Position numbers and translations under genes: made by a program
NCBI GenBank assembly: GCA_964645975.1
Contig: CAZYAF010000010.1
Location: forward strand, 67,682-131,681
Direction of reading: 5' to 3'
Length of the DNA stretch: 64,000 nucleotides
From: an uncultured Acidobacteriota bacterium
Lineage (GTDB): Bacteria; Acidobacteriota; B3-B38; Guanabaribacteriales; CAZYAF01
Part shown: positions 3,376-31,827 of the stretch, piece by piece
Numbering within the stretch: the first letter of the stretch is position 1
Layout of the letters: each line of letters opens with the position of its first letter
Notes under the pieces: model-generated
What the model was told of the DNA's origin: nothing
Databases searched by the model: none
What the model saw: only the letters and a program-made list of their open reading frames with translations

Positions 3376-3484
3376 CCACTGACAACCGACGACTGACAAC
3401 TGAAAACCGACCACTGACGACCGACAACTGATTACTGACAACCGGCAACTAATAACTGACCACTGATAACCGACCACTGAATTG
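3376..3484. repeat. Tandem heptanucleotide repeat, about 15 units of YGACNAC (TGACAAC/CGACGAC/TGAAAAC and variants), immediately after the stop codon of the upstream gene
   Basis: The 7-nt periodicity is visible by direct reading. The spurious minus-strand ORF 3160-3477 translates it as SVISCRLSVISCRSSVVGFQLSVVGCQ. Confidence 0.8.
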
Positions 3485-3764
3485 TGGCATTATTAATCAA
3501 TAATTTAATAAAAGTTGTGTCCAGAATTTTCTGTAAATTTATCTCCAACATACTTCTTATACCAAGCAATTCATAGAATAATTAGGCTTTCCGATTTGCT
3601 GAAACACTATCATATTCAGATATCGATTTCCATCAATACTACTATTTTTCAAAAAAATCAATTCCCAGAGAATTTGTAGTTTTAACTTTTACAATTTTAT
3701 AGTAGTATTTAGTTAAGGAATGGCCATTATAAACTTTAAACCTAAATATTAAGGGAGGGTGAGA

Positions 3765-13016: not shown

Positions 13017-15237
13017 AAAGCATCTGGTAATAATCATTTTAATTGTTATCGTTATTTCATGCTTCTCCCTATATTTCTGCTCTTTTGATGAAGAGGTCTT
13101 CAAGAACCGTTCCTGTTCAACTGAATTCTATGATCGAGATGGGCAATTGCTCAGAACCTTTTTATCAGAAAAAGAGACCTACTCGGAATGGTGCCGCCTG
13201 GCAGAAATCTCTCCTCATTTCTTAAGAGCCATTGTTCTCATAGAAGACAGAAAATTTTATTCTCATCATGGAATTGTTGCGAGTTCGCTCTTCCGTGCTC
13301 TTTTACAAAATCTCCAGGAAGAGAGAATCGTGTCTGGTGGTTCCACCATTACCATGCAACTTGCCAAGCTGGTGTATGGTCATAAAAAAAGAACTATAAT
13401 AAATAAAGTCCTTGAAATCTTTGCTGCGTTGAAGTTTGATCTGCATATTTCAAAGACAGAAATTCTGGAAGAATATGTCAACCGATTGCCTTTTGGGAAT
13501 ATGATTTACGGTATCAAAGAAGCCTCTCATTTTTATTTTGACAAGGACCCCTCTCAATTATCTTTAAATCAGGCAATTCATCTGGCTCTGCTTCCAAAAT
13601 CACCTTCAAGATATAATCCCAAAAAACATATGGATACCTTACATAGAAGGTGGAAAATAGTTCTTGAAATATTTAAAGAAAATCATTACATCAACCCGGA
13701 TGAATACCAGAGAGCTGTAAACGAGGGGATTACATTTCAGATGAAAGATTATCCATTTTTAGGTCCTCATTTTATTGACCTTATCAAAGAGAAATATTTT
13801 CAAAAAGAGCTGCCGGAAAAGGTTCATACTACTTTGGACTACTCTGTACAGAAAGAGTTGGAAGGCATTATTCGAGGACATCTTGTCCGTCTAGCAAACT
13901 ACAATGTTAGATCAGCCGCAGCTATTATTATCGATAATCATACACATGAAGTTATCGGATTTATGGGCTCGCCAGATTATTTCGACCATAATATTTCAGG
14001 ATTTGTTAATCTGGCAACTTCCCTTCGGCAACCGGGATCGAGTTTGAAGCCCTTTGTTTATGCTCTGGCTTTGGAAAATGGCTATACACCTGCCACAATA
14101 ATACCGGATATTAAATTTCCCGCTAAAGGTGGATTTTTCCCTAAAAATCATGATGGGAAGGAGCACGGCCCCCTGCGATTAAGAATTGCCCTGGCATGTT
14201 CATACAATATTCCTGCTTTCTACCTGGCTATGAAATTAAAGCCGCAACAAGTAATTAAAAAGCTGAGACAAGCTGGATTTTCTTATATACGCAATGATCC
14301 GGGATTTTATGGAGAAACTATCGCCCTGGGCTCCGGTGAAGTAACCCTGCTTGATCTGGTTACTGCATATTCAGCTTTTGTTAACAAAGGGAGCCTCTAT
14401 TTACCTGTTTTTATAAAAAGCCAACCTATTAAAAGCCAACCATTATTTGATGAGAAAGTTGCCTTTTTAATCTGGGATATTCTGGCCGATCCGTCGGCAA
14501 GATTTGCCAGTTTCGGCTATAATTCCTCCATGAATCTTCCATTTCCTCTGGCCATAAAAACCGGCACATCTAAAGGATTCAGAGATAATTGGGCTATTGG
14601 AGTCAATTCCGAATACACAATTGGTGTATGGATTGGGAATCCCAATGGTGACAATATGAAAAACATAATACAGGTAGGAAATGCATCAACAATCCTGAGG
14701 GACATTTTTCTTGCAGTGCAAAAAGATTGGACAAAAGGCGATATTGAAATACCTGCTGGAATTGTCAAAAGAACCGTATGTCCACTATCGGGAGAATTGG
14801 TTACAGATAGATGCCCGGATGCTGTGGAAGAGTTTTTTGGCGAATATAATGTGCCGGTGAAACAATGTTCCTATCATATAAAAGAAAATGGAGAACTTAA
14901 AATAAAATACCCGGAGCTGTTTAAGCAATGGGCTTTAAGGAATAATCCTGAGATTAATATCACCATCAAGAAAGACAGAAAAAAATGGATTTCCTTCCCC
15001 CAAAACGGTGACTTTTTTTACATATCTGATGCTATTTCAATGAAAGACCAGCAAATTACTTTCGAAGTCATGGGGTATCGGCCTGGAGAATCTGTAGATT
15101 TTTTCCTTGACAATACACTATATGCAAGCATTATTTATCCTGAAACCATTCTTTGGACATTGCAAAGAGGGGAGCATACTCTCGCCCTAAAATCAAATGG
15201 GAAAGATATAGATAACATTAAATTCTTTGTTAGATAA
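12979..15237 (+). CDS. pbpC: Penicillin-binding protein 1C (bifunctional glycosyltransferase/transpeptidase)
   Basis: GT51 transglycosylase motifs EDRKFYSHHG and GGSTITMQLAK. Transpeptidase motifs SSLKPF (SxxK) and KTGTS. N-terminal TM anchor. Overlaps the A2M gene by 38 nt. Confidence 0.85.
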   Translation: MAEMKIGKLRLNKKHLVIIILIVIVISCFSLYFCSFDEEVFKNRSCSTEFYDRDGQLLRTFLSEKETYSEWCRLAEISPHFLRAIVLIEDRKFYSHHGIVASSLFRALLQNLQEERIVSGGSTITMQLAKLVYGHKKRTIINKVLEIFAALKFDLHISKTEILEEYVNRLPFGNMIYGIKEASHFYFDKDPSQLSLNQAIHLALLPKSPSRYNPKKHMDTLHRRWKIVLEIFKENHYINPDEYQRAVNEGITFQMKDYPFLGPHFIDLIKEKYFQKELPEKVHTTLDYSVQKELEGIIRGHLVRLANYNVRSAAAIIIDNHTHEVIGFMGSPDYFDHNISGFVNLATSLRQPGSSLKPFVYALALENGYTPATIIPDIKFPAKGGFFPKNHDGKEHGPLRLRIALACSYNIPAFYLAMKLKPQQVIKKLRQAGFSYIRNDPGFYGETIALGSGEVTLLDLVTAYSAFVNKGSLYLPVFIKSQPIKSQPLFDEKVAFLIWDILADPSARFASFGYNSSMNLPFPLAIKTGTSKGFRDNWAIGVNSEYTIGVWIGNPNGDNMKNIIQVGNASTILRDIFLAVQKDWTKGDIEIPAGIVKRTVCPLSGELVTDRCPDAVEEFFGEYNVPVKQCSYHIKENGELKIKYPELFKQWALRNNPEINITIKKDRKKWISFPQNGDFFYISDAISMKDQQITFEVMGYRPGESVDFFLDNTLYASIIYPETILWTLQRGEHTLALKSNGKDIDNIKFFVR

Positions 15238-15474: not shown

Positions 15475-16161
15475 ATGCCTAATCAAGATTTAAAAATTAC
15501 TGTTGTTATCCCCGCTATGAATGAAGAGAAAACAATTGGGGAAATTATAAAGAGATGCCAGTCTTCTGCCGATGAAATTATAGTAGTAGATGGACACTCC
15601 ACTGATAAAACCAGAGAGATTGCGGAGCAATTGGGCTCAAAAATAATATTAGACCACAAAAAAGGCAAAGGCGAAGCCATGCGCAGCAGCATTCCACATA
15701 TTAACGGTGAAATTACGGTCTTCCTCGATGCCGATGGCTCCCATGATCCCAATGATATTGCGCGTCTTATAGAACCAATTTTAAAAGATGAAGCTGACCA
15801 TGTTACCGGCTCTCGCCTTACCGGAGGCTCCAGCGAACTCCATGGCGGATTCGATGAATGTTTTCGATTAATGGGGAGTTCTTTTATCACTGCTTGCATC
15901 AATTGGCGATACAAAGTACGGTTGAGCGATAGTCAAAACGGATTTCGAGCGATAAAAACCCCCGTGCTAAAAGCGCTTGACTTGAAGGAGAATAAGACTA
16001 CAATTGAGCAAGAGATGATAATGAAGACTTTAAAGAAAGGTTATCGGATAACGGAAGTGCCTACACATGAATACAAACGGAAACATGGAGATTCTCATAT
16101 AAAGCTGTGGAAGCATTCCTTGAGATATATTTATTCATTAATAAAATATCTGTTTTTTTAA
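15475..16161 (+). CDS. GT2 glycosyltransferase, Dpm1/ArnC-like polyprenyl-phosphate sugar synthase
   Basis: 228 aa GT-A protein with VVIPAMNEEKTIGEII and a DADGSHDP DxD-type motif. Size and motifs fit polyprenol-phosphate hexose synthases. Confidence 0.7.
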   Translation: MPNQDLKITVVIPAMNEEKTIGEIIKRCQSSADEIIVVDGHSTDKTREIAEQLGSKIILDHKKGKGEAMRSSIPHINGEITVFLDADGSHDPNDIARLIEPILKDEADHVTGSRLTGGSSELHGGFDECFRLMGSSFITACINWRYKVRLSDSQNGFRAIKTPVLKALDLKENKTTIEQEMIMKTLKKGYRITEVPTHEYKRKHGDSHIKLWKHSLRYIYSLIKYLFF

Positions 16162-16224
16162 TGTGCATATTCGATATGGATTCAAAATACCTCTATAATA
16201 TAGTGTCAAAATAGCATTAATAAA

Positions 16225-17661
16225 ATGAAAATTTTACTTCTAAACCCCCCCAGCAAAGATAACAAAAAATTCATCCGAGAAGGAAGATGCACGCAGGAAA
16301 GTAGTTTATGGACTACTGTATGGCCCCCCATATCATTGGCTACCATAGCTGCATTACTGGAAAATGATGGGCATATCGTAAAGGTCAACGATTGTTCTGC
16401 TGAAGCAATCAATCATTCTTCATTAAAAAAGATAATATATGCTTTCTCTCCTCATATAATTATCTGGAGCTCAGGCACACCTTCGATTCAAAGCGATTTG
16501 GAATTATCAAGCTTTATCAAGGCTCTTGACAGCTCAATAAAAACAGCCACTTTTGGCACCCATGTAACTGTGTTCGCGGAGGATTGTTTGCAAGAACATC
16601 CTGATCTGGATTTTATTATTAGAAACGAACCGGAATATACCATAAGGGAATTGGTCTTTGCATTGGAAAAAAGCAGAGGATACAGAACGATTAATGGACT
16701 TAGCTATAGGGATTCTGATAATCATATTATCCACAATCCGGATAGAGCGTTCATAGAAAATATAGATAAGCTTCCCATGCCAGCATGGCATCTTGTCAAC
16801 CTGGATTGCTATAGAATGCCGCTTAAAGGGCATCGTTTTTTAATCGTCTCTCCTCTACGGGGATGTCCTTATGAATGCACGTTTTGCACTACCCAGACAT
16901 ATTATGGGAATAAGGTGCGGAAACGTTCGCCTGAGCGAGTTGTGGAGGAAATAGAATATAATGTTGAGAACTATAATATTAAAAATTTCTTCTTCTGGGC
17001 GGATACGTTTACCCTGGACAAAAAATATGTTAAGAATCTCTGCAGATTGATTATGGATAGGGAATTAAACATTTCGTGGGTATGCAACAGCAGGGTTGAC
17101 ACCGTGGACGAAGAAATGTTAAAAAATATGGCTGATGCCGGCTGCTGGATGATTAGCTATGGCATAGAATCAGGCTGTCAAAAGATACTCGACATTTGTA
17201 AGAAAAAAATTACTGTGGAACAAACAAAAAAAGCAGTTGAATTAGCCAGAAATATGGGGATTAAAACAGTAGGCCATTTTATTATCGGTCTACCAGGCGA
17301 AACAATTGAAACAGCTCAAGAAACTATCAACTTTGCTCATTCCTTACCTTTAGATTTTGCTCAATTTTATTCAGCAGTACCATTTCCCGGTTCAAAGTTG
17401 TATGAGATGGCAAAACAGAATCAATGGATTGAAAATGATAACTGGGAAAAATTTAATCAAACCAGAGTGATAATGAATCTGTCAGATTTAAAACCTCATG
17501 AAGCAGATAAACTTATCAAAAAGGCTTACAAATCTTTCTATTATAGACCCCAAAAAATCTCTGCTGCACTTAAGATGATTCGATTCTCCACCATATGGAA
17601 TTCATTGGTGCAAGCTAATCATTTTATTAAATCTCTCTTAACAAAACAGGAAAGAAGCTAA
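16225..17661 (+). CDS. B12-binding domain radical SAM enzyme (class B radical SAM; candidate methyltransferase)
   Basis: CPYECTFCTT is a CxxxCxxC radical SAM cluster. The N-terminal Rossmann-like B12-binding domain begins MKILLLNPP. A paralogous N-terminus is present at 63894. Confidence 0.8.
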   Translation: MKILLLNPPSKDNKKFIREGRCTQESSLWTTVWPPISLATIAALLENDGHIVKVNDCSAEAINHSSLKKIIYAFSPHIIIWSSGTPSIQSDLELSSFIKALDSSIKTATFGTHVTVFAEDCLQEHPDLDFIIRNEPEYTIRELVFALEKSRGYRTINGLSYRDSDNHIIHNPDRAFIENIDKLPMPAWHLVNLDCYRMPLKGHRFLIVSPLRGCPYECTFCTTQTYYGNKVRKRSPERVVEEIEYNVENYNIKNFFFWADTFTLDKKYVKNLCRLIMDRELNISWVCNSRVDTVDEEMLKNMADAGCWMISYGIESGCQKILDICKKKITVEQTKKAVELARNMGIKTVGHFIIGLPGETIETAQETINFAHSLPLDFAQFYSAVPFPGSKLYEMAKQNQWIENDNWEKFNQTRVIMNLSDLKPHEADKLIKKAYKSFYYRPQKISAALKMIRFSTIWNSLVQANHFIKSLLTKQERS

Positions 17662-17666
17662 AATCA

Positions 17667-19361
17667 ATGTATACATTAGGCATTTGGGATGGCCACGATT
17701 CTGGTGCTGCTCTGCTTAAGGGAGATAAAATTCTGTTTGCCATTAATGAAGAGAGATTAACCCGAAGAAAGTTGGAGGTAGCTTTCCCCCAGAACTCAAT
17801 TGAAGCATGCTTGACCTATTGCAATTTAGCTCCTGAAGATATCAATCACATTGCCATTTCCACGTACGATTTTGCCAAAACCTTAGCCAGGCTTTTCCCC
17901 TCATTTAAAGAGGAATACTATTTGATTCGACGAAGAAAAAAAATGCCAAAAGGATTTACCTATCTCAAGAAGAAGGTGAAATATAAATTAACCGAATATA
18001 AACCGAATGGTTTTTATGAATTCATCAGCAAGCTTGTGGTAGCAAAAAAGTTAAAACAATTAGGATTTGGCGACTTTCAATTACTTTTCCTCAATCACCA
18101 TCTGTGCCACGCAGCAAGCGCTGCCTTCTGCAGCGGTTTTGACGAATGTATTGTGCTCACAATAGATGGCATTGGTGACGGTTTATCAGGAACCATCAGC
18201 ACTTTTCGAGATAATAAACTCAATCTCATTTCATCCATTTCCGGGAAGGATTCCTTCGGAATATTCTTTGAGCATGTCACCAATTTGATGAACATGAGGG
18301 AGCTTGAAGATGAAGGAAAGGTTATGGCTCTGGCCAATTACGCCTATCCCATCGATGATGAAGACAATCCTTTGATGGATTTTTTCCGCGTTGAAGGTTT
18401 AAATATTAAAGCCAAATACAGCACGTTGCAGATATACGACAGGCTCAAGAAAATCCTCTGGAAATATCCTTCTGAACAGTTTGCCTATATGGCGCAGAGA
18501 GTGTTAGAAGCGAAGATAGTTGAGTTAGTTGAAAATATAACCAAAGATACCGCCCTCCGAAAGATAGCGCTTTCCGGTGGAGTCTTTTCAAATATTAAGG
18601 TTAATATGAAAATAAAGGACCATCCACAGATTGAAGATTGCTTTGTCTTTCCGCATATGGGTGATGGTGGCTTGGCGCTGGGTGCCGCTATGTTGGCGAA
18701 TTACGAGCTTAATAGTATTTCTTCCTATAATCTTAGCGATTTATATCTCGGCCTGGAATATACTGACGAGGAAATCAAAAATACATTGGAAAAGCACACT
18801 CTTCATTTTACGCAGGTAAAAGATATCTGGAAGGAGGTTGCACAATTAATAACTCAGGGGAGCATAGTGCTGTGGTTTCAGGGAAGGATGGAAGCTGGAC
18901 CGCGAGCCTTGGGTGCTCGAAGTATTGTAGCAATGTCCGACTCTGAGAAAATCAAGGATAACTTAAATCTTAAGCTTAAAAAAAGAGTGTGGTATCAACC
19001 CTTTTGTCCCACTATGTTGGATAAAGATGCACGAGATTTGCTGCAAAATTATAATAGCAGATCGAATAAATTCATGACTATGGCTTATACGGTCAGAGAA
19101 GATATGCGAGAAGTGGTTAAAGGTGTTATAAACATAGATGGTTCCTGCCGTCCGCAGATTCTTGATAGTAATGAGACATCCTATGAAAAACTTTTGCATG
19201 AAATAAAGAAGCTAACTGGTCACGGAGTCATACTTAATACCAGTTTTAATATTCACGGTGACCCCATTGTTTGTTCCCCAGAGGATGCAGTCAAAACATT
19301 GATTAAATCGAAAGCCGATTATCTGGCAATAGGTAACTATATTGTTAAGGGGGTGGAATGA
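17667..19361 (+). CDS. NodU/CmcH family carbamoyltransferase
   Basis: N-terminus MYTLGIWDGHDSGAALLKGDKILFAINEERLTRRK is characteristic of the Carbam_trans_N family. About 560 aa, typical for O-carbamoyltransferases. Confidence 0.8.
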   Translation: MYTLGIWDGHDSGAALLKGDKILFAINEERLTRRKLEVAFPQNSIEACLTYCNLAPEDINHIAISTYDFAKTLARLFPSFKEEYYLIRRRKKMPKGFTYLKKKVKYKLTEYKPNGFYEFISKLVVAKKLKQLGFGDFQLLFLNHHLCHAASAAFCSGFDECIVLTIDGIGDGLSGTISTFRDNKLNLISSISGKDSFGIFFEHVTNLMNMRELEDEGKVMALANYAYPIDDEDNPLMDFFRVEGLNIKAKYSTLQIYDRLKKILWKYPSEQFAYMAQRVLEAKIVELVENITKDTALRKIALSGGVFSNIKVNMKIKDHPQIEDCFVFPHMGDGGLALGAAMLANYELNSISSYNLSDLYLGLEYTDEEIKNTLEKHTLHFTQVKDIWKEVAQLITQGSIVLWFQGRMEAGPRALGARSIVAMSDSEKIKDNLNLKLKKRVWYQPFCPTMLDKDARDLLQNYNSRSNKFMTMAYTVREDMREVVKGVINIDGSCRPQILDSNETSYEKLLHEIKKLTGHGVILNTSFNIHGDPIVCSPEDAVKTLIKSKADYLAIGNYIVKGVE

Positions 19362-21055
19362 AAGAAAAAGGAAAATACAAAACCAAATTAGTCATCATTT
19401 TTAGCTGTATTCTTTGGCTTGCTATTTTGTATTTATGGATTACGCATTATGAGAATTGGCAGCTCAAAGAACAGCTAAAGTTTATCTCTCCTTTATTTCT
19501 GGCAATAAATTTTTTTCTTATACTATTTTTGGCAATTCTAAATTATAAATCTATCAAAGAACTCTTCACCAATCTTCCCAGGCACATACGTATCATCGTT
19601 ATTGTAATAGCTGTTTTGGGAGCTTTAATGTCAGGGCTAATTCCTGCAAGGACCCACCGCATCTACTATGACGAAACCATCTATCAACATATCGGTCAAA
19701 ACATAGCATATCTGAATAAAGCTCAGATGTGCAATTATGGGGATATAGATTACGATGAGTTCTACTGCCACCAGAGCGAGTATAACAAAGAACCCAATGG
19801 ATACCCCTTTCTATTGAGCATTGCTTACAGGCTGTTTGGCTGCCATGAGAGTGTCTCCTATATAATGAACAATTTGATTTATGGTTTATCTCTACTAACA
19901 ATCTTCTTTATTGCATCAATCTTATTCGAAAGCCACATCGCCGGCATCTACGCATCTCTTATCTTCTGTTTCATCCCGGTAAACCTGATCTGGTCGAACA
20001 ACACCTCAGCCGAGCTGTGCTCCTCGTGCTTCGCCGGGCTCGCCCTTTTAACTATGCTTCTATTTATAAAGAAATCCAAAGTTTTGCTGTTTGTATTAGC
20101 CATCGCAATGCTCGCATTTGCCATTCAGTTCCGCCCCGAATCACCAATGATTATATTTATTGTATTTCTCTCTTTACTCCTGTTTAAAAAAGATATTTTA
20201 AAAGATGAAAAATATTTTCTCTACACTATCATCTCCCTTGTTCTGGTACTACCAGTTGCAGTGCATTTTTATGCCATGAGTGGCGAAGCCTGGGGGGCTA
20301 CTACCAGTAGTAAATTAGCCCTGAAGTATTTTTCGCATAACATCAAAACCAACGGTCTTTTTTATCTCGATAACGTAAAATTTCCCTTGTTATTTTCCAT
20401 TCTCTTTTTCATTGGCATATTCTTTCCTAAAAAATGGAAGGAGAAGTCCGTTATATTCCTGTGGTTCTTTCTATTTTGGGGAATATTCGTCATCTTCTAT
20501 GCTGGAAGCTACGAATATGGAGCGGATGTCCGCTTTTCCCTGGTATCTTATATGCCTCTGGCATTATTAGCAGGCTTTGGACTCAAGCATATGGAGGATA
20601 TCACTTCGAAATTAACCAAGCCCTTTTATCTGAGAACACTGATTGTACTTATATTAATCATAACCTTGCTTAACTTTCTTCCCTATGTCCGTGCTGTGGG
20701 TCAGGAAGCCTGGGGAGCGCGGGCGGATTATGATTATGCAAAAGAGATGGATGAATTGCTGCCTGTGGATTCCTTGATTGTGTCTCATAATCCCAATATG
20801 TTTTTCTTATGGGGAAAAAATGCTGCACAGGCATCCATGGCGACCTATGATAAGCCCCTTTTAGACAGTCTCTTTAATAGATATACCGGAGGGATTTATT
20901 TTCATTACAGCTTCTGGTGCAATGTTCCCGATAAGGTGCAAAATGAATTCTGCGAGAATATCATATGTAATTACAAAACCACCCTGATCAAGGAATATAA
21001 AGAGAAATATTACAGATATGCCCTCTATAAAATCGAAAAGAAAGAAAATGGATGA
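19358..21055 (+). CDS. GT-C fold membrane glycosyltransferase, GT39/PMT_2 (ArnT/protein O-mannosyltransferase-like)
   Basis: Polytopic membrane protein with a YYDE acidic motif in the first extracytoplasmic loop (RTHRIYYDETIYQHIG). Its start overlaps the stop of the upstream gene by 4 nt. Confidence 0.65.
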   Translation: MKEKGKYKTKLVIIFSCILWLAILYLWITHYENWQLKEQLKFISPLFLAINFFLILFLAILNYKSIKELFTNLPRHIRIIVIVIAVLGALMSGLIPARTHRIYYDETIYQHIGQNIAYLNKAQMCNYGDIDYDEFYCHQSEYNKEPNGYPFLLSIAYRLFGCHESVSYIMNNLIYGLSLLTIFFIASILFESHIAGIYASLIFCFIPVNLIWSNNTSAELCSSCFAGLALLTMLLFIKKSKVLLFVLAIAMLAFAIQFRPESPMIIFIVFLSLLLFKKDILKDEKYFLYTIISLVLVLPVAVHFYAMSGEAWGATTSSKLALKYFSHNIKTNGLFYLDNVKFPLLFSILFFIGIFFPKKWKEKSVIFLWFFLFWGIFVIFYAGSYEYGADVRFSLVSYMPLALLAGFGLKHMEDITSKLTKPFYLRTLIVLILIITLLNFLPYVRAVGQEAWGARADYDYAKEMDELLPVDSLIVSHNPNMFFLWGKNAAQASMATYDKPLLDSLFNRYTGGIYFHYSFWCNVPDKVQNEFCENIICNYKTTLIKEYKEKYYRYALYKIEKKENG

Positions 21056-21283
21056 AAGTCCGGACAAACAGCCAGATAGGCTGCGCATATATCGCTAAAA
21101 TAAGGCAATATTATTCTGATAAATAAACACAACCGGAGAATGTTGTTTCTATAATTTCAGGATTAATAAGAAATACCAATAAGCTTTTTTTACATAATTT
21201 CTATTATTTTTGATCCTGGATTAAATGGTGGACGAGCGAGAATTAAAAAAAATTAATTTTTTTGTGAAAGATACCTGAAATAA

Positions 21284-21292
21284 TGGTATAAT
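21284..21292 (+). promoter_or_regulatory. Extended -10 promoter element TGGTATAAT upstream of paralog 1
   Basis: TGnTATAAT consensus lies about 80 nt upstream of the ATG at 21370. Equivalent elements sit upstream of paralog 2 (TGATATAAT, 22899-22907) and paralog 3 (TGGTATAAT, 23928-23936). Confidence 0.5.
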
Positions 21293-21369
21293 GCAAATAT
21301 TATCTTGTTACCATCATTTATTAGAAGAAGTTTATGATGTTTTGTTAATCATTTAAAGGGTAAGACTAT

Positions 21370-22212
21370 ATGAAAATATTATTTTTTCGTAAAGTCAAAG
21401 CTTATAGAGTTTTTATCGTCGGTTTCATCATTCTATTAGGAGCCGTAGCTTTTTATTTGAGCTGCCAGTCGAAATCTCCTACCGATGCTGCCGTACCTTC
21501 GACGGAATCCCTTGCAGCCAGGGATGCGAAAGGTACCACTCAAACAACTACTTCCTCAAGCACAACGACGACGATAAAGCCATTGAGCTCAGCTTCTATC
21601 TCCACGACCATCATCACTTCGCGTAACCTGACCACTACCTCTACCACATCTACTACTACATCAACAACTTCAATTCCAGGTGCCACTACCTCAATAATTC
21701 ACCCGGCTAATGTGAAATTTTGCTATATTATTGGAGTTTATAAACTCATGTGGGATGGTGTTGGCACGCAGCGCGCAAAAGGAGTGTCAAAGGTACCAAA
21801 ACAGATAACCATTTACAATGGCGATACTGTGCACATTCCCTGGGAATATTGCTTGAGCTTAAATTTCTACGTTCATAATGTTGGTGGTTCTCCGGCAGAA
21901 AATGTTAAGATTATTCCTCTATCCGGGCTAGCAACTTCTCAAAATATTTACAGAGGAGTATCTGGTGATCCTACAATTCCTATGCCTGTACTTCCTGAGA
22001 TAGCATTTCTTGCAAATGATGGCGTATGTGTAAAGCATCCACTTAGTTCTTTTTATCAATGCAAGAAAATTCAACTAAATACAGTAACCTCTCAAACTAC
22101 TATTGCCTGTGTGGTGAACAAATTTAAGTTGGACTGGAAAGATGCGAGATGGGATTCAGAATTCAGTTTTACTCAGTGTTATGGATATCCGAATAATTCC
22201 GTTCCCCATTAG
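21370..22212 (+). CDS. Secreted/membrane-anchored mucin-like protein, paralog 1: signal-anchor, Ser/Thr-rich linker, Cys-containing CARDB-like C-terminal domain
   Basis: YLSCQSKSPTDA lipobox-like N-terminus. The TTQTTTSSSTTTTIKPL low-complexity S/T tract is conserved at the nucleotide level with paralog 2. C-terminal NVGGSPAENVKIIP motif. Confidence 0.7.
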   Translation: MKILFFRKVKAYRVFIVGFIILLGAVAFYLSCQSKSPTDAAVPSTESLAARDAKGTTQTTTSSSTTTTIKPLSSASISTTIITSRNLTTTSTTSTTTSTTSIPGATTSIIHPANVKFCYIIGVYKLMWDGVGTQRAKGVSKVPKQITIYNGDTVHIPWEYCLSLNFYVHNVGGSPAENVKIIPLSGLATSQNIYRGVSGDPTIPMPVLPEIAFLANDGVCVKHPLSSFYQCKKIQLNTVTSQTTIACVVNKFKLDWKDARWDSEFSFTQCYGYPNNSVPH

Positions 22213-22424
22213 TATTATCCTTTCTCAAGTGCAAAGGGCTCGATAGTTTGCTAAAACTTGAACAGAAACTATGAATAGTTATTCATAGCAAGCGGATATA
22301 TTCTGTTTAACTTCCGTGCGTTTTTAATGAGAAAGATGTGCTATTTTATTAGTGCATTTTAGAATAGCTTCCATCAGCAATAAAGTTTAAAATCTCCTTT
22401 TATTCATTCAAGTAACTAAGTTAG

Positions 22425-22690
22425 ATTGTGAAAAAGGGATGTTTGTGAACAGGGAAAATTTCTATAAATTTTTTCCTTCCTTGTATTATTCTTCTCTTAG
22501 GTAAGTGTAGTAGCCATCTATTTAAGCTGTACATCCAAATCTCCTGCAGATGCTACTGCACCTTGAAGTGAGACTTTGGCAGCCAAGGGTGCAAATAATA
22601 CAACACAAACAACCTCCTTAATCATCAAAACGACCACCGCACGGCCATCGAGCTCAGCAGCTACTTCCAGTTTACAATTTGTGTTCAGGT
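22425..22690 (+). pseudogene. Decayed fourth copy of the mucin-like paralog family. Start codons are mutated to GTG, there is an in-frame TGA, and the C-terminal domain is lost.
   Basis: Nucleotide similarity to the 5' regions of paralogs 2 and 3. Translation VAIYLSCTSKSPADATAP*SETLAAKGANNTTQTT matches the family. The upstream region is also paralogous. Confidence 0.65.
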
Positions 22691-22979
22691 GGTAGATTAA
22701 TCTTATCTTTGCGGTTGCTAAAATTTTATGAGCTCCAAAAAGAAAAAATATATTCATATAAATATCTTAGACACGATCTTGTTTTCGACTCAGAAGAAAG
22801 ACGCTCGGTATTATTTATTCCTGAACATTGCGAATTTATTTGTTGCAAAATATTTTTGGTACGTTCTCATATTTTTTTATGAAAAAAATATGTTATGGTG
22901 ATATAATATATTTTATATATAAATAGATTTTTAAAAAAGTGAGATAAACATTTTCAACCTTCAAGTAGGAGGGTATATT

Positions 22980-23792
22980 ATGAAGGATAATATTATTATA
23001 GGAAAGAAAAATTACAGCTATTGTATTTTATGTTTTATTCTTCTTATAGGAATTTTAGTTTTTTATTTAAGTTGTGAATCCAAATCTCCCACTGATGCTA
23101 CTGCAGCTTCAACTGAAACCCTGGCAGCCAGAGGTACGAAAGGCACTACTCAAACAACTACCTCCTCCAGCACAACGACGACGATAAAACCCTTGAACCC
23201 GGCTGCTACCGCCAGTACTATCGTCACCTCTCGAAACCTTACTACCACCACTATTGGCGTGCTACCGACGACTACTACAACAATAAGCCAATTACCTGAT
23301 GTGCAGTTTTGCGATATTATGGTACTTTATGAAAGGCGGAATTTTCCAATTCTTAATTCAAAGGGAGTTGTGCCACCAGAAGATCTGCCACATAAATTGT
23401 TTATTAAAAATGGTGGCACCATTAGGATTCCTATCCAGGGGTACTGCGTGAAAATATATGTCCGGGTTAAAAATGTTGGTGGTGCTCCGGCAAATAATGT
23501 TAAGGTTATTCCTGAAAACCTAATTAGTACAAAATATTTTGACAGGCGAGCTATGAATCATTTTGAACCTCCTGTGATTCACACCCTCCCAAATGATAGT
23601 TATTGTAGAGAGCATCCTGTTAGTAATATATTTTGGTATGGCTGTTGGGCTCGGGACGCTGGGCAAATTATAAAATCAACTATATTTTTACCAGAGTGCA
23701 TTGATATTTATTTGAAGCTGCAATGGCAGGGTGCAACGCATGAGCCAAAATTCCAATTTAAAATTTGTTTTTATTGGCCGTATGATGATTAA
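22980..23792 (+). CDS. Mucin-like secreted protein, paralog 2
   Basis: Same N-terminus and S/T linker as paralog 1 (FYLSCESKSPTDATAASTETLAARGTKGTTQTTTSSSTTTTIKPL). The C-terminal domain is diverged and retains KNVGGAPANNVKVIP. Confidence 0.7.
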   Translation: MKDNIIIGKKNYSYCILCFILLIGILVFYLSCESKSPTDATAASTETLAARGTKGTTQTTTSSSTTTTIKPLNPAATASTIVTSRNLTTTTIGVLPTTTTTISQLPDVQFCDIMVLYERRNFPILNSKGVVPPEDLPHKLFIKNGGTIRIPIQGYCVKIYVRVKNVGGAPANNVKVIPENLISTKYFDRRAMNHFEPPVIHTLPNDSYCREHPVSNIFWYGCWARDAGQIIKSTIFLPECIDIYLKLQWQGATHEPKFQFKICFYWPYDD

Positions 23793-24016
23793 TATCATCA
23801 TTTCCCAGTTGCAAAAGATTCGATAAAAAGCTAAAGCTTGAATAAGAGCCATAAATAGCTTTTCGCAGCTATTAAATATATTCTGCTTAGTTCATGTACA
23901 TTATTTAATGAAAAAAATGTGCTAACGTGGTATAATATATATTGCATCTAAGAATTGCCAACCGAAGAAATAGAAAAAAAGCCACTTTTTACTCCTCTAA
24001 GTAGTCAAATTAGATT

Positions 24017-24739
24017 ATGAAAGAGGAATATATGAACAGGCAAAATTTCCACTGGTATTTTATTCTTTGTTTTATTCTTATCTTGGCTGTTGTAGCTTTT
24101 TATGTAAGTTGTAAATCGAAGTCTCCTACAGAATCCACATCAGCATTGAATGGGCAGGTCGCAGGACAGAATGCGAATAGCACCACTCAGACCACCACCT
24201 CTTCCAGCACCACAACTACTGTCAAACCGGAAAGTTCACCTACCAACACCACCACTCTCATTACTTCCAGAAACCTGACAACTACCTCCACTTCTACATC
24301 CACCACAACCTCTATACCAACAACCACTACAACCACAAAAAGACCAACCACTACATCAATAGGAAATCCCTTGTTGAAATGGTGCTCTGTTACGATTAAT
24401 GGAATACCAAGAGGAGAAGTTTATGATATACCACCTAATTCAAAGAAATTAACTATTGGTATTTCCATTAAAAATGTTGGAACAGCTCCTGCAAAAAAAG
24501 TAGCTGCTAACCTATATATTGAAGATCCCTCGGATAATATATTTCCAGTATCTGATGGTTATGAATATCTGGGAACGATTCCGGCTGATAATAAGTGTTA
24601 TGGTTCATCATCAGCTTTTTATATGGAAGTCGTCGGCACTCCTTCGGATGACTGGTGCTGGATTCATATAGTAATAAACGTCCCCGGTTGTAAAAACTGC
24701 TCCATCGATTATTATATTTATATTGATGTAATATACTGA
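24017..24739 (+). CDS. Mucin-like secreted protein, paralog 3
   Basis: FYVSCKSKSPTES followed by an S/T tract and TSRNLTTTS. The C-terminal domain is diverged and Cys-rich, with KNVGTAPAKKVAANLYI. Confidence 0.7.
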   Translation: MKEEYMNRQNFHWYFILCFILILAVVAFYVSCKSKSPTESTSALNGQVAGQNANSTTQTTTSSSTTTTVKPESSPTNTTTLITSRNLTTTSTSTSTTTSIPTTTTTTKRPTTTSIGNPLLKWCSVTINGIPRGEVYDIPPNSKKLTIGISIKNVGTAPAKKVAANLYIEDPSDNIFPVSDGYEYLGTIPADNKCYGSSSAFYMEVVGTPSDDWCWIHIVINVPGCKNCSIDYYIYIDVIY

Positions 24740-25126
24740 TGCAGATTAAATTAATTGAGAAATAGCTTTAACTCTCCAGCGGAACTTTTCGCATCAATTT
24801 AACAACAAAGGAAAGGAAAATAATCTTTAATATATCTTTTTATTAAAACTCAATAATCAGGAGTCTGCTTTAACTAACCGCGTGATTTTAAAGCGTATTT
24901 TTCTTGTCCTCCCCAAACCTGCATAAGAATTTATACTTTCGCCAAAAATGAATCTTCAATATCTATAAGATTTTTTTTATTTAAGGTTATGCGAAATTGC
25001 AAATAGAAAGCAAAAATTGGGTGAACTTTTTTTAAGTATAAAATGGAAGCTATTTCTGGTCATATAAAGTAGGGACAGGCGGCAAAGCCACTTCATTATA
25101 TCAAGCACACAAAGGGCATCCGTGTA

Positions 25127-25164
25127 GGGACAGGGCTTGTCCCTGTCCGAAGCAGCTTTTCGGA
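25127..25164. other. GC-rich pair of overlapping, mutually exclusive hairpins in an AT-rich intergenic region
   Basis: GGACAGGG-cttgt-CCCTGTCC is an 8-bp stem. GTCCGAA-gcagctt-TTCGGAC is a 7-bp stem. The two share the 4 nt GTCC. Confidence 0.4.
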
Positions 25165-25386
25165 CAACCACGAGGGCTGTCTCTACAAAGTATTCCTTCG
25201 TAGAGAAAGAGCTTGATCTTAATGCACAGCAATCTCAAGGCTTGCCATTTTTAGAGGAACCGCAGCATAAGAAATCCTTTACATGAAGAATCTTTTGCGG
25301 TAATTTATAAGTTGTGAATTCAGGTATTTTTCATTTCAAGGTAGTCCCATTATTCTTAGTAATATTAAGGACGACTATTAAGTAAA

Positions 25387-27441
25387 TTGAAGCAAAATAT
25401 TAGAAGCCGTTTTTCTGGTTTTACCCTCCAGGGGAAGCAGCTTCGATTTAGTCAGCACATAGGTATAATTATCTGTTTGCTCCTTGTGGGAGTTATGATT
25501 CGCCTTTATTTTTTCTCCGGCTTTGTGCTGGGGGATGATCCCACCTATGCGCAGTACGTGTCCCTTATCCTGAAGGGAAATTATCCTAAGATTGATGAGT
25601 TTGCCGTTTTTGCCTGTCGCCCAGTGCTTCTTTTTGTTACTGCCATCCCTGTTTATCTGTTCGGCTGGCAGGAGTGGAGCTTCGTGCTCCCCATATTAAT
25701 AGCCTCTCTGCTCAATATTGTAATAATCTATTTAGCAGGCAACAGGTTCCACAGCCCACTGGCCGGAATCCTGGGAGCTCTGGCGTATCTCATCTTTCCC
25801 CTGGATGCGGTTAACGCAACAACATATAGCAATGATATTCTGCTCTCCACCTTTGTCTGGGGTGGGGGGCTTTTGCTTCTTTTCTCTTATAAGAAATTTC
25901 ATCAAAAAAAATATCTCATTTTTACTTTTTTATTAGGCTTCATTGTTGGTGCATCCGTAGGGATTAAGCTCAACGCTCTCGTAGCAGTTGTGCTCTTTTC
26001 AGGAGTTTTGGCTTTCACTTTATGGAAACAATTAAGAAAAGGAGCTTATAAGTCTCTCGTTGCCTGGAGTGTCGGATGGCTTGGAGCCAATCTTTTGCTG
26101 TGCCTTTTCTTTTTCTATCAAAGCGGGAGTTTTCTCGCACATTACCACATTGAAAAAAGGTTCAATTTAGTCCATAAGCCTTCCGGATTTATTCCCGAAG
26201 CAAGCAGCTTAAAATCATTTCTCCTGGTCTATCCAAAATTGATGCTGGGCATAGGGAAAGAAGGTCATTCAGGCTATTTCTTTCTTCCCTATGGCTACTT
26301 TTTTCTATTTTTCCTCTGCTGCTTACCCTTCGCCTTTTCCAAACGTTTCAAAGCATCCAGGTTGCCCATAGTTCTCAGCCTATTCTACTTATTCGTCATG
26401 GAATTTGCCCCCTTACAGTTGCTTCCGCATTATATTCCCATCCATCGGCTGCCGCGTTTTCTGCATATCGCCTCGATGCCCGCAGCAATGGCTATTGGCA
26501 TTACCTTTGCCGTGTTAATAAGGTTTCGCAGCAAAGTTATAAAAATATCTTCCGGGATAATTTTTCTATTCTTAATTATTTCGTCAGTTTATTGGGTTTG
26601 GACGAAAGCTTATTTTTATCAGGATTGCGCTCAGGATAGAAGATGGACCTGGGACACTATCAAGTATCTCTCAGGGAGAGAAATAATAATAGACCCGGAG
26701 ATGTTGAGCTATCTGGAGTTTCGTTCCGGTTATCAACCGGTCATACCTATAAGATTTTTGGAGCAGATGCCCAGGGCATTTTCAAAAGCTACTATAGTAA
26801 TTCTGGATGGGGCCAGGAGACCGGACCTGTATCCCGGGTATGCCAAGGCCTGGAGAAAAGACAAGTATCCTGAGGAAAAGTATATTATCGCCGAAGCGCG
26901 CTTTCCGCTCAAATCCTGGAGACAATCAAATGTGAAAATTTATTATTTGCCTCCTAATATCTCGAATGCATATCATCATACGTCAATAAAGGATATGGAA
27001 AAAATTGGCGAGCTCGATATTGGAAATCCTGACTCTGAAAGGGAGTTTGATTATACCATTGACTTGCAGACCTGGCAGGGATCCAGGGAATTTTCTTATC
27101 CGGGTAGCATTCTTTGCGAGGATGATGGAAGAGCATTCCGTGGAAAAGAAGAATTCACGCTGAACCAGCTATTTCCCAATCGATCACTCATTATTTTAAA
27201 ACGTTATGATCCTGCGGTTCGAAACCAGGAGGTAAAGGTATATTTTAATGATCAATTTATTGGCAGGTGGAAATTTGAAGAAACTCCTCTACACGGAAAG
27301 TGGAGAGAAAGTACGTTTATCATCCCTTCAGATCAGATAAAACACAAAAAAGGTACTCTCAGCTTCTTTTTTCTAAAAAGCGCTTTTGATATTAACAGTT
27401 TTTACTACTGGTTTTACCAGCCAAAGATATCTTCTCAGTGA
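25387..27441 (+). CDS. Second GT-C-type polytopic membrane glycosyltransferase-like protein (GT39/GT83-like), with a C-terminal soluble domain
   Basis: About 12 predicted TM helices. Acidic loop-1 motif FSGFVLGDDPTYAQY. C-terminal ~250-aa periplasmic-type domain. The start is uncertain: a TTG at 25387 in the track, with the first ATG at 25495 falling inside TM1. Confidence 0.5.
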   Translation: MKQNIRSRFSGFTLQGKQLRFSQHIGIIICLLLVGVMIRLYFFSGFVLGDDPTYAQYVSLILKGNYPKIDEFAVFACRPVLLFVTAIPVYLFGWQEWSFVLPILIASLLNIVIIYLAGNRFHSPLAGILGALAYLIFPLDAVNATTYSNDILLSTFVWGGGLLLLFSYKKFHQKKYLIFTFLLGFIVGASVGIKLNALVAVVLFSGVLAFTLWKQLRKGAYKSLVAWSVGWLGANLLLCLFFFYQSGSFLAHYHIEKRFNLVHKPSGFIPEASSLKSFLLVYPKLMLGIGKEGHSGYFFLPYGYFFLFFLCCLPFAFSKRFKASRLPIVLSLFYLFVMEFAPLQLLPHYIPIHRLPRFLHIASMPAAMAIGITFAVLIRFRSKVIKISSGIIFLFLIISSVYWVWTKAYFYQDCAQDRRWTWDTIKYLSGREIIIDPEMLSYLEFRSGYQPVIPIRFLEQMPRAFSKATIVILDGARRPDLYPGYAKAWRKDKYPEEKYIIAEARFPLKSWRQSNVKIYYLPPNISNAYHHTSIKDMEKIGELDIGNPDSEREFDYTIDLQTWQGSREFSYPGSILCEDDGRAFRGKEEFTLNQLFPNRSLIILKRYDPAVRNQEVKVYFNDQFIGRWKFEETPLHGKWRESTFIIPSDQIKHKKGTLSFFFLKSAFDINSFYYWFYQPKISSQ

Positions 27442-28998: not shown

Positions 28999-30825
28999 TT
29001 ATTTTAGGTTCATTTTATTGAGCAATGAAGTGAAGCGAGGATCCGAGCGCAAGCTATCGAAACTTGGACTTGTTTTGATCATAAGTAGTCTTGGATCACG
29101 CTCTCTGTATGCTTTTTCTAACCATTCAAAAGCAAGGTCCTTTTTATTTAGCCCAGTATAAATTAATGCTATTGAAACCGGAGGGAGATATTTAACCTTA
29201 GATAACTCTAATGATTCGTTAAGCAGCTTTTTAGCTTCAGCTTGCTTTCCTGCAAAGGCATATCTGATTGCCAGAAGTGGTTTTAAAGAAAAATTCGATT
29301 TTTCTGTTAATTGCTGTGCTTTCTGTATCTCTACAATAGCTGTCTCTTCTTTTCCCAACTTTGAATAAATAATCCCTAAATACCAATAAGCTACCCAAAA
29401 ATGAGGATCAAGTGAAAGAACCTCCTGCAATTTTTCTATTGCTTGGTCATATTTACGTGCATAATAAAAAAGAATAGCAGCATCTGCTCCTATAATGAGA
29501 GACAAAGGATCGAGCATTTGGGCATATTCAATTTCTTCAATGGCTTCCTCGATTCTTCCCATATTTGTTAAATACCATGCATACCAATGATGAGCAAAAG
29601 AATAATTTGGATTTAATTCAATTGCTCGTTTAAATTCTCTCTCAGCCTTTGGAAAGTTCCAATCATAATTTTTGTAAACAAATGCCAAGGAAGCATGAGC
29701 TTCAGCAATCCGGCTATCAATTTCTAAAGCTTTTATTGCTGCAGATTTTGCCTTGGGAAAAACTTGCTTCGGTGATTGAAAAGCATAATCTGCAAGCAAA
29801 TTATAGCTATCTGCTATTCCTACGTAAGCAAGTGCAAATTTTTTTTCTTTTTCAAGTGCCTTTTTGTAATATTCTATGCTGTTATTTATTCCTGCTTCTG
29901 TTCTTTTGTTCCAGAAATAGCGTCCTTTTAGATAGAGATTATAAGCTTCTGTATTACGAGGGCAATTATTTACTAATAAATCTCTCTGTTCTTTTTTAAG
30001 TTCTATATTCAACTCACGAGCAATTTCCTGCGCAATTTCATCTTGAATAATAAAAATACCTTTAAGCTCCTTATCATAAGTTTTTGACCAGATTTGCGAA
30101 GCATCTTTTGTATTAATTAGATGCACAATAACACGAATGTCATTGTTTTCTTTTTGAATACTGCCTGTGAGAATTGTTTCTACTCCAAGTTCTTTGCCCA
30201 TTTCTTCAATGTTTTTATCAGTTTCTTTATAATGTATTACTGATGTCAGAGAAATCACTTTAAGCTCTTGTATTCTTGCAAGCTTACTAATAATTGTCTC
30301 AGCTATTCCATTACAGAAATACTCCTGATTTTTTTGAGGGCTTAAATCTTTAAAGGGTAATACAGCGATAGATGTTTTATCTTTTCCTAGTATTGATATG
30401 TTAGTTGCTTTTTCTGTCATAAAAATACGATAAATAATGATAGCTAATACTATTACGCATATTGATGTTAGAGCAACAAATAGTTTCTTACGTATTTTCA
30501 AATATTTTTTTGGAGAAGTTAATTTCATCTTTTCTTTTGTTTTGCTTAAATCCTTCTCTTTTTGTCTTCTTTTTTCTGGCTCTTTTTCAGGTTGAATTTT
30601 GGAGGTTTCTTCGCTCCTGGTTTTTAGATAAGGTTCTCCTTCCCCTGTTAGCAGCCAATTAATATTTATATTTTTAGCTTTAGATAGTTTATCTAAAAAG
30701 TCTGCTTTGGGAATTCTACCCTTAAGATAATTGTCTAAGGTCTGACGATGTATACCTAATTCGCGAGCAAACTGGGCAACATTCTCTCCTACAATTTCTT
30801 TTAATCTATCAGCGATATTTGACAT
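28999..30825 (-). CDS. Membrane-anchored one-component regulator: N-terminal XRE-type HTH, a basic linker, one TM helix, a TolB_N-like domain and C-terminal TPR repeats
   Basis: HTH QFARELGIHRQTLDNYLKG. TM LFVALTSICVIVLAIIIY. IAVLPFKDLSPQKNQEYFCNGIAETIISKLARI is a TolB-N-like motif. Multiple TPR-like repeats run to the C-terminus. Confidence 0.65.
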   Translation of the reverse strand: MSNIADRLKEIVGENVAQFARELGIHRQTLDNYLKGRIPKADFLDKLSKAKNININWLLTGEGEPYLKTRSEETSKIQPEKEPEKRRQKEKDLSKTKEKMKLTSPKKYLKIRKKLFVALTSICVIVLAIIIYRIFMTEKATNISILGKDKTSIAVLPFKDLSPQKNQEYFCNGIAETIISKLARIQELKVISLTSVIHYKETDKNIEEMGKELGVETILTGSIQKENNDIRVIVHLINTKDASQIWSKTYDKELKGIFIIQDEIAQEIARELNIELKKEQRDLLVNNCPRNTEAYNLYLKGRYFWNKRTEAGINNSIEYYKKALEKEKKFALAYVGIADSYNLLADYAFQSPKQVFPKAKSAAIKALEIDSRIAEAHASLAFVYKNYDWNFPKAEREFKRAIELNPNYSFAHHWYAWYLTNMGRIEEAIEEIEYAQMLDPLSLIIGADAAILFYYARKYDQAIEKLQEVLSLDPHFWVAYWYLGIIYSKLGKEETAIVEIQKAQQLTEKSNFSLKPLLAIRYAFAGKQAEAKKLLNESLELSKVKYLPPVSIALIYTGLNKKDLAFEWLEKAYRERDPRLLMIKTSPSFDSLRSDPRFTSLLNKMNLK

Positions 30826-31663: not shown

Positions 31664-31827
31664 AATAAAGATTTTTAACTAATTATTTAAAAAGGGATGG
31701 TAATAGGGAAGCGACCTTGTATGTTTGTTTACTCCTTCTACTATTAAAAAGATAGAAGCATTTTTTTCTATTCTATGATTAATAGATAGAATTGCAATCT
31801 TTGCTATCGCATTTATTATTAATAAAA

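Follow-up and report, generated by a model that had tools for sequence, protein, structure and literature searches.

A conserved four-gene cassette of uncultured bacteria as a candidate pathway for periplasmic transfer of a carbamoylated, radical-tailored sugar

What does a compact set of genes for a probable lipid-linked sugar synthase, a radical enzyme, a carbamoyltransferase and a membrane glycosyltransferase do in an uncultured Acidobacteriota bacterium, and to what would its product be attached? The question is raised by positions 15475 to 27441 of a 64,000-nt stretch of contig CAZYAF010000010.1, referred to here as the window; coordinates throughout are window positions. A preliminary description of this DNA had proposed a system that decorates a lipid-linked glycan and transfers it to Ser/Thr-rich proteins encoded next to it. 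Here we report that four of these genes form a cassette that is conserved in at least nine phylum-level groups of uncultured bacteria. We lean towards reading this cassette as a variant of polyprenyl-phosphate-sugar periplasmic glycosylation, with a shared component of the cell envelope rather than the Ser/Thr-rich lipoproteins as its likely acceptor.

The cassette comprises four genes:

15475..16161, + strand: glycosyltransferase of family GT2, 228 aa; PF00535 at 93 bits
16225..17661, + strand: class B (B12-binding) radical S-adenosylmethionine enzyme (B12-rSAM), 478 aa; PF02310 at 44.9 bits and PF04055 at 119.5 bits
17667..19361, + strand: TobZ/NodU/CmcH-type O-carbamoyltransferase (CT), 564 aa; PF02543 at 136.2 bits and PF16861 at 187.3 bits
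19358..21055, + strand: membrane glycosyltransferase of the GT-C type (GT-C1), 565 aa; PF13231 at 47.7 bits

All open reading frames (ORFs) that the preliminary description had placed between 15475 and 27441 were found at their coordinates, and each of the Pfam domains it had predicted (PF00535, PF02310 with PF04055, PF02543/PF16861 and PF13231) was recovered by a Pfam scan. Its picture of four genes packed with overlapping starts and stops is accurate for CT and GT-C1, which overlap by 4 nt, and not for the remaining junctions, where 63 nt separate GT2 from B12-rSAM and 5 nt separate B12-rSAM from CT.

Conservation was assessed with a profile built from 24 GT-C1 homologues, with which one genome per GTDB species was scanned. 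This yielded 161 loci, the best 80 of which were retrieved for neighbourhood comparison. The window proteins were run against the retrieved loci by tblastn, with counts taken on the 57 loci that have at least 5.5 kb of DNA upstream of the GT-C gene, and the neighbouring ORFs of 82 loci were grouped by unsupervised all-against-all clustering. By tblastn, 54 of the 57 loci have CT immediately before the GT-C, 45 have GT2, 29 have B12-rSAM and 28 show the exact order GT2-rSAM-CT-GT-C. Clustering recovered the GT-C in 78/82 loci, CT in 69/82, GT2 in 46/82, B12-rSAM in 38/82 and a second radical SAM enzyme, of about 356 aa and the SPASM type, in 16/82, with 16 likewise among the 57 loci; the next commonest neighbour cluster reached 7/82. 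These five families are thus the only widely recurrent ones. Among the best 80 of the 161 loci, the hosts belong to Thermodesulfobacteriota, Nitrospirota, Magnetococcales, Ignavibacteria, Chlorobiota, Acidobacteriota/Aminicenantes, Planctomycetota and Spirochaetales (Spirochaetota). Identity to the window proteins is 53-71% for GT2 in the cassette loci of other phyla, 44-64% for CT across phyla, 45-55% for B12-rSAM across related loci and 34-48% for the GT-C in the surveyed cassette loci. Because the four-gene arrangement recurs across phyla, it is far beyond chance. The proposal that the four genes form a functional unit is upheld by this co-conservation, and the alternative of genes that are not conserved together clearly fails.

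Many of the genomes carrying the cassette are magnetotactic, among them Magnetococcales, Ca. Magnetominusculus and bins of Nitrospirae magnetotactic bacteria (loci L043, L044, L058, L063, L064, L066, L069, L072, L073 and L084); this abundance may be a sampling bias of metagenome-assembled genomes (MAGs) or a real ecological association. A class II aldolase upstream of CT in L022, above the cut-off for L-fuculose-phosphate aldolase, was considered as a further member and set aside as a probably unrelated neighbour; it probably represents a cluster of ORFs of about 220 aa found at the same position in six loci.

The first enzyme, GT2, carries a DAD motif and ends in a tail that is hydrophobic or amphipathic; it lacks a transmembrane domain. 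Its full-length NCBIfam matches are AglJ (160 bits), PpgS and a haloarchaeal dolichyl-phosphate (Dol-P) hexose transferase; the ArnC model scores 50.6 bits against a cut-off of 529. The top matches among PDB sequences are the P. furiosus Dol-P-Man synthase (5mlz, 6.9e-17) and ArnC. From these family relationships we infer a putative polyprenyl-phosphate sugar synthase, for which polyprenyl phosphate would be the presumed acceptor.

In CT, both Carbam_trans_N (Kae1-like) and Carbam_trans_C (YrdC-like) exceed their gathering thresholds of 24 and 27 bits. The protein matches TobZ at 1e-64, and GdmN and NovN are matched as well; with 118 bits where 1000 would be required, it falls outside the NodU equivalog. 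Characterised TobZ-type enzymes carbamoylate hydroxyls, often on sugars, with ATP and carbamoyl phosphate. Because the family uses these two substrates, CT must act in the cytoplasm.

The radical SAM enzyme of the window has the domain architecture predicted for class B, an N-terminal B12-binding domain followed by a radical SAM core, and its Cx3Cx2C motif can be read in the sequence as CPYECTFC. Its best NCBIfam model is HpnJ at 296.6 bits, about half of the cut-off of 577.6, so that it falls outside the HpnJ equivalog; BchE follows at 224.6 bits, and the best PDB match is the diol dehydratase AprD4 (7.7e-30). Fom3, MoeK5 and HpnJ fall in one similarity cluster of class B enzymes, in which HpnJ is a ring contractase acting on lipid-linked glucosamine and MoeK5 a C-methylase of moenomycin biosynthesis (PMC9204698). 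MoeK5 reportedly acts on the earliest monosaccharide intermediate, the lipid-phosphate-linked first sugar of moenomycin (PMC3814723).

In 16 of the clustered loci, including L027, L031, L048 and L052, the SPASM-type enzyme stands in for B12-rSAM, and the two types (38 and 16 loci) never occur together. This swap looks like non-orthologous displacement inside a conserved pathway. From the mutual exclusion it follows that the radical SAM step seems integral to the pathway and is supplied by two unrelated enzyme types. The preliminary description had expected a C-methylated sugar, an expectation weakened by the swap and by the nearest families of B12-rSAM, which include non-methylases (HpnJ, BchE and AprD4). 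C-methylation is a possible outcome, no better supported than the alternatives. We know of no SPASM-type methylase, and the exclusive replacement, if both radical SAM enzymes are isofunctional, argues for a non-methylating radical reaction.

The most constant member, GT-C1, has a confidently predicted GT-C fold (mean predicted local distance difference test score, pLDDT, 87.6) and matches GT-C structures. Its periplasmic RIYYDE motif contains D105 and E106, both invariant in 24 homologues, which substantiates the loop-1 DE motif noted earlier; a DE motif in the first extracytoplasmic loop together with this fold is a combination that GT-C1 has in common with many GT-C families. The C-terminal periplasmic domain contains cysteines, and the conserved Cys pairs lie in loops predicted to be extracytoplasmic. 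Membership in GT39, as first proposed, is not borne out. The Pfam scan gave no match of GT-C1 to PF02366 (PMT), only to the broad GT-C model PF13231 (PMT_2); the profile of 24 homologues found nothing at E <= 1 among PDB sequences; and the predicted structure is equidistant from ALG12, AglB, Pmt4, ArnT and STT3. The automatic 'GT39' label only reflects the broad PMT_2 model. ArnT models are likewise absent among the NCBIfam matches of GT-C1 and of a second GT-C in the window, described below. At least 459 relatives were found, typically 42-51% identical over their full length; the few that their sources name are MAG proteins of Desulfobacteraceae, Deltaproteobacteria/Thermodesulfobacteriota and Ignavibacteria. 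Judged by sequence and predicted structure, GT-C1 appears to represent a distinct, uncharacterised GT-C family.

Taken together, the family assignments fit cytoplasmic tailoring followed by periplasmic GT-C transfer. The idea of a unit for decorating and transferring a lipid-linked sugar, with unusual tailoring, is supported. In the pathway that we propose, GT2, working at the cytoplasmic face, would take a monosaccharide from a nucleotide sugar and join it to polyprenyl phosphate, and CT would O-carbamoylate a hydroxyl of that sugar in the cytoplasm, either on the nucleotide sugar or on the lipid-linked form, both roles being those of the enzyme families. The radical SAM enzyme would carry out a second tailoring, which could be C-methylation as by MoeK5, ring contraction as by HpnJ, or dehydration/oxidation as by AprD4. 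A flippase, for which the window holds no candidate, would move the tailored sugar across the membrane, and GT-C1, probably joined by the second GT-C in this lineage, would transfer it by way of its DE loop to a periplasmic acceptor. ArnD, NaxD and LgmC similarly tailor lipid-linked monosaccharides before GT-C transfer. In three-component systems, auxiliary enzymes such as the epimerases of the pentofuranose systems tailor lipid-linked sugars (PMC11127046).

Loci of the Planctomycete/Spirochaete type depart from the window in their order, which is CT, GT-C1-like paralogue, SPASM-rSAM, GT2, GT-C. Five of them have the cassette flanked by a small membrane protein of the GtrA/DPMS_TM family (PF04138, 77 bits), which is associated with polyprenyl-phosphate-sugar handling:

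L052, 11650-12090: GtrA/DPMS_TM (PF04138) small membrane protein
L054, 7888-8367: the same family
L057, 8609-9037: the same family
L062, 2402-2830: the same family
L065, 7116-7535: the same family

Downstream of the cassette the window carries an array of Ser/Thr-rich genes and the second GT-C:

21370..22212, + strand: Ser/Thr-rich probable lipoprotein 1, 280 aa
~22440..22700, + strand: frameshifted, shortened remnant of a Ser/Thr-rich gene, with direct repeat D2 at 22519-22671 and short ORFs
22980..23792, + strand: Ser/Thr-rich probable lipoprotein 2, 270 aa
24017..24739, + strand: Ser/Thr-rich probable lipoprotein 3, 240 aa; weak Pfam Mucin match, below cut-off
25387..27441, + strand: second GT-C (GT-C2), 684 aa; PF13231 at 32.1 bits
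21264..21292, + strand: promoter-like site with a TG-extended -10, about 80 nt upstream of Ser/Thr-rich gene 1
22879-22907 and 23908-23936: promoter-like sites at a similar offset upstream of Ser/Thr-rich genes 2 and 3

The PF13231 match agrees with the earlier recognition of a second GT-C-like membrane protein at 25387-27441. GT-C2 belongs to a different PMT_2 subfamily and has a C-terminal extracytoplasmic extension of about 240 aa; a close paralogy with GT-C1 was considered and rejected, since the two are 24% identical and over the N-terminal half only. The second GT-C of the Planctomycete loci is a paralogue of the GT-C1 type and not a GT-C2. Homologues of GT-C2 directly follow GT-C1 in L092 (64% identity, gap of about 300 nt) and L015 and lie within the cassette in L019 and L093; GT-C2 is most parsimoniously read as an accessory that recurs with the cassette. 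Gene callers dispute its start, placing it at TTG 25387 (684 aa, L002) or at an internal ATG at about 25495 (648 aa, L001); the first transmembrane helix is kept only in the 684-aa form. Relatives of GT-C2 are sometimes labelled 'Ara4N transferase-like', these being automatic names only.

Of the four mucin-like genes first counted in the array, three are intact, and the fourth is the frameshifted, truncated remnant at ~22440-22700, which spans the signal peptide, the lipobox and the start of the linker only; its repeat D2 shares 67-71% identity with the 5' portions of the first two genes. The intact proteins share a hydrophobic N-terminus ending in FY[LV]SC (Cys32), a linker of about 85 residues with 35-49 Ser/Thr (43 in protein 1) and a Cys-containing all-beta C-terminal domain. 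F28, Y29, S31 and C32 are invariant in six paralogues, position 30 being L or V. With Cys32 after a hydrophobic segment and a non-canonical Tyr at -3 (FYLSC), a lipoprotein nature is plausible from the sequence. The model of the C-terminal domain of protein 1 is an all-beta sandwich (pLDDT 73), and a fold search with it gave only weak, generic Ig-like matches (E >= 0.009) and no functional lead. Protein 2 is 44% identical to protein 1, with the linker motifs TTQTTTSSSTTTTIKP and TSRNLTTT conserved. Over the 5' halves (21397-21643, 23007-23253 and 24044-24290) the DNA is 63-74% identical, whereas the linker peptides are almost the same in all three. Differences in the linker motifs are mostly synonymous, which points to purifying selection on the low-complexity linker and not recent gene conversion. 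In a consensus scan all three promoter-like sites score 10/12 matches; such matches are not above shuffled expectation in the region overall and are weak evidence for promoters, while the same offset recurs in each repeat unit.

The distribution of these genes is narrow. Elsewhere in the window, a Ser/Thr tract of comparable density occurs only as a single out-of-frame match at 429-518; because the reading frames hold no other such tract, the clustering beside two GT-C genes is real in this genome. Relatives of the C-terminal domain number eight among 5.8 billion protein clusters, with six representatives among 1.84 billion, and all relatives of the family come from close relatives of the source organism. 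The window has three copies and the remnant, L090 (GT-C 87% identical) at least three and L095 two, whereas L092 (GT-C 69% identical) has none and the GT-C2 homologue there directly follows GT-C1. Since the array is absent from L092 and the family is tiny, we regard it as a lineage-specific insertion between the two GT-C genes, which is most parsimoniously placed in one sublineage; that every intact gene of the array comes with a promoter-like site is in keeping with this. The Ser/Thr-rich lipoproteins are a young, fast-evolving family. Nor does a lipoprotein gene follow the GT-C as a general rule, an idea that was examined and rejected: the gene directly downstream is lipobox-like in 4/28 loci against a background of 22/456, and three of the four (L027, L031 and L033) are a single Ignavibacteria family, with L005 unrelated.

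To what, then, would the sugar be transferred? If the cassette were a protein O-glycosylation system like that of Ppm1/Pmt, the adjacent lipoproteins would be its dedicated or most heavily modified substrates. In favour of this, the two GT-C genes flank all three intact Ser/Thr-rich genes of the window, three related genomes share the layout with differing numbers of copies, and the invariant linker motifs TTQTTTSSSTTTT[IV]KP and TSRNLTTT suggest a recognised element. We nevertheless hold this explanation to be unlikely, and the original view of these proteins as the probable substrates is not supported by the comparison: tblastn finds no homologue of them at the 80 GTDB loci or in the other relatives retrieved for that survey, their eight relatives contrast with at least 459 of the GT-C, L092 keeps both GT-Cs without them, lipobox-like genes after the GT-C are scarce and mostly from the one Ignavibacteria family, and GT-C1, unmatched by PF02366, is no nearer to the PMTs than to ALG12, AglB, ArnT or STT3. 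They may be opportunistic or additional substrates, to which adjacency alone points. That a widespread pathway installs an O-carbamoylated, radical-remodelled and possibly carbocyclic or C-branched sugar, with targets that here include these mucin-like lipoproteins, we consider decidedly unlikely; if true, it would be a new type of protein O-glycosylation in bacteria, novel in both its GT-C family and its sugar chemistry. An ArnT-like modification of lipid A or the lipopolysaccharide (LPS) core, in which a carbamoylated sugar on phosphates or core sugars alters charge or resistance, mirrors the cassette in its GT2, tailoring enzyme and GT-C (ArnC/ArnD/ArnT), is compatible with host phyla generally regarded as diderm and could draw on the automatic 'Ara4N transferase-like' name of some GT-C2 relatives. 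It is improbable in our judgement and not demonstrated by the data. ArnT-specific models do not match, the ArnC score stays far below its cut-off, neither arnA/B/D/E/F nor lpx genes recur in the 82 neighbourhoods, and the ArnT fold match is no better than those of the oligosaccharyltransferases, PMTs and ALG enzymes; the known carbamoylation of LPS, on the core heptose of Pseudomonas, is a cytoplasmic-face reaction that is not known to need a GT-C.

Very improbable, finally, is a cassette that makes a free phosphoglycolipid like the moenomycin head group, in which a lipid phosphate bears a carbamoylated, C-methylated sugar, or serves another role without transfer. A chemical precedent is MoeK5, a B12-rSAM whose substrate is the first, lipid-phosphate-linked sugar of moenomycin (PMC9204698, PMC3814723). 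The MoeM5 carbamoyltransferase acts on the same sugar. Such a role could lend meaning to pbpC, which encodes a penicillin-binding protein and lies 238 nt upstream of the cassette in the window, with PbpC homologues about 6 kb upstream in L038 and L068; this adjacency is missing in 77/80 loci and in the close relative L090. No member of the cassette is as constant as the GT-C, whose catalytic DE loop is intact, while moenomycin clusters are not known to have a GT-C and contain several further glycosyltransferases and prenyltransferases, none of which recur here.

On the reading that we favour, a shared envelope component, such as LPS/lipid A-core or another glycan, is the most likely acceptor because the cassette is widespread without a conserved neighbouring acceptor gene. 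The lineages that bear the cassette are generally regarded as diderm.

Several findings weigh against the reading that we favour. Eight loci have CT and GT-C without a nearby GT2 or radical SAM gene and three have the GT-C alone; by tblastn no GtrA-like or other flippase gene was found in the window; and the 80 GTDB loci stem without exception from MAGs or from drafts of uncultured bacteria. Every NCBIfam match of GT2 falls under its equivalog cut-off. Two features of the Ser/Thr-rich genes would fit substrates: their place exactly between the two GT-Cs, and the purifying selection on their linker, whose motifs TTQTTTSSSTTTT[IV]KP and TSRNLTTT do not vary among six paralogues although the DNA carries numerous synonymous differences. 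A non-protein acceptor, moreover, is preferred solely because conserved neighbours are missing, and general protein O-glycosylation would equally lack them. We favour a generic envelope component, and the data do not tell LPS/lipid A apart from a different glycan or a dispersed protein set.

In L036 a multi-pass membrane protein of 800 aa (7533-9935), which has an NPCBM carbohydrate-binding domain at its C-terminus, lies between CT and GT-C, and related membrane proteins of 650-800 aa follow the GT-C in L043, L045 and L073; these proteins hint at a glycan acceptor in those lineages.

Directly upstream of the cassette, 7254-15237 encodes a 1920-aa alpha-2-macroglobulin (A2M) lipoprotein and a 752-aa PBP1C-type penicillin-binding protein, with a 38-nt overlap, as a classical bacterial A2M-PbpC pair. 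It was considered as part of the system and rejected, being not adjacent to the cassette in other genomes; tblastn found no homologues of the window A2M or of a PKD-domain lipoprotein at the other cassette loci. Beyond this PKD lipoprotein and a helix-turn-helix (HTH) protein, a Wzx/Wzy-type polysaccharide locus extends over 31166-63854, with a Wzz-tyrosine kinase, a CpsB phosphatase, two Wzy_C proteins, a Wzx flippase, a sulfotransferase, several GT2 and GT4 enzymes, RmlC/D-like enzymes and a UDP-GlcNAc 2-epimerase. Its tandem NusG paralogues (39672-40202 and 40566-41102) may act as locus-specific antiterminators. A gene of a beta-barrel porin family at 31792-33081 suggests a diderm host. The HTH protein (28999-30825, - strand, 608 aa) combines an N-terminal HTH of the CI-repressor type, a transmembrane segment and C-terminal tetratricopeptide (TPR) repeats, and may be a regulator anchored in the membrane; its gene separates the cassette region from the polysaccharide locus.

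At the 5' end, positions 1-6500 have a GC content of 46-51% against 30-40% in the remaining window and contain three long GTG-start ORFs, for an amidohydrolase, a beta-lactamase-fold protein with TPR and a 1065-aa Sortilin/BNR protein; the segment may be horizontally acquired or an assembly junction. This high-GC end is protein-coding and not rRNA, and Rfam and tRNA scans of the window gave no matches. JGI metagenome contigs and one NCBI assembly contain the window sequence as well.

If the proposed model is true, an envelope decoration that is so far unstudied would be common to Thermodesulfobacteriota, Nitrospirota, Acidobacteriota (including Aminicenantes), Planctomycetota, Ignavibacteria, Chlorobiota, Spirochaetota and Magnetococcales, many of its carriers being uncultured anaerobes of sediment and groundwater and magnetotactic bacteria. 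The sugar from which it is built would be carbamoylated and radically tailored, without a described counterpart in envelope glycobiology, and GT-C1 would found a new GT-C family. The tailoring repertoire of lipid-linked sugars would be extended beyond deformylation, deacetylation and epimerisation, and class B and SPASM radical SAM enzymology would gain a new sugar substrate. As a compact and well-conserved unit of four genes, the cassette is directly testable by heterologous expression.

How does this cassette relate to known systems? The preliminary description had not recognised the combination from any described bacterial protein glycosylation system, and we found no GT2-rSAM-carbamoyltransferase-GT-C cassette in the searchable literature. 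In the HpnI/HpnK/HpnJ hopanoid pathway a GT2 attaches a sugar to a lipid that a class B radical SAM enzyme then remodels, and HpnJ is the best NCBIfam model of the cassette enzyme; unlike the cassette, the pathway has neither a GT-C nor a carbamoyltransferase, and no hpn or shc genes were seen in the cassette neighbourhoods. Unit F of moenomycin, whose carbamoyltransferase is MoeM5, offers a chemical precedent, to our knowledge the only one, for carbamoylation and radical SAM modification of a single lipid-phosphate-linked monosaccharide. Moenomycin differs in being a secreted antibiotic, assembled on farnesyl-phosphoglycerate by the enzymes of a large Streptomyces cluster that is not known to include a GT-C.

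The Ppm1/Pmt (GT39) system shares with the cassette a Dpm1-like GT2 and a GT-C with a loop-1 DE motif and, in this one lineage, Ser/Thr-rich secreted proteins nearby. It has no counterpart to CT or the radical SAM enzyme and is actinobacterial, whereas the cassette lacks conserved Ser/Thr-rich neighbours and occurs in phyla generally regarded as diderm. Three-component systems (GtrA/GtrB/Gtr, and the C. youngae PPPRS, flippase and GT136; PMC11127046) combine a lipid-linked monosaccharide donor with a GT-C and auxiliary enzymes, as is proposed here, and the linkage of a GT-C to a GT2 is likewise found in the cassette (45/57 loci). They have a dedicated flippase (GtrA, MATE or ArnE/F) where the window has none and a GtrA-family protein is present in five related loci; the GT-C family of the cassette is distinct, and for carbamoyl and radical SAM tailoring in such systems we found no description in the literature searched. 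The Arn pathway follows the same logic as that proposed for the cassette, with a GT2 synthase, tailoring of an undecaprenyl-phosphate-linked sugar at the cytoplasmic face (ArnD) and a periplasmic GT-C, and ArnC and ArnT are among the best sequence or fold matches of the cassette proteins; Francisella FlmF2/NaxD/FlmK and Bordetella LgmA/C/B are analogous. The cassette has no arnA/B/E/F and reaches the cut-off of no Arn-specific model. Where these pathways tailor the sugar with a deformylase or deacetylase, the cassette instead employs a TobZ-type carbamoyltransferase and a radical SAM enzyme.

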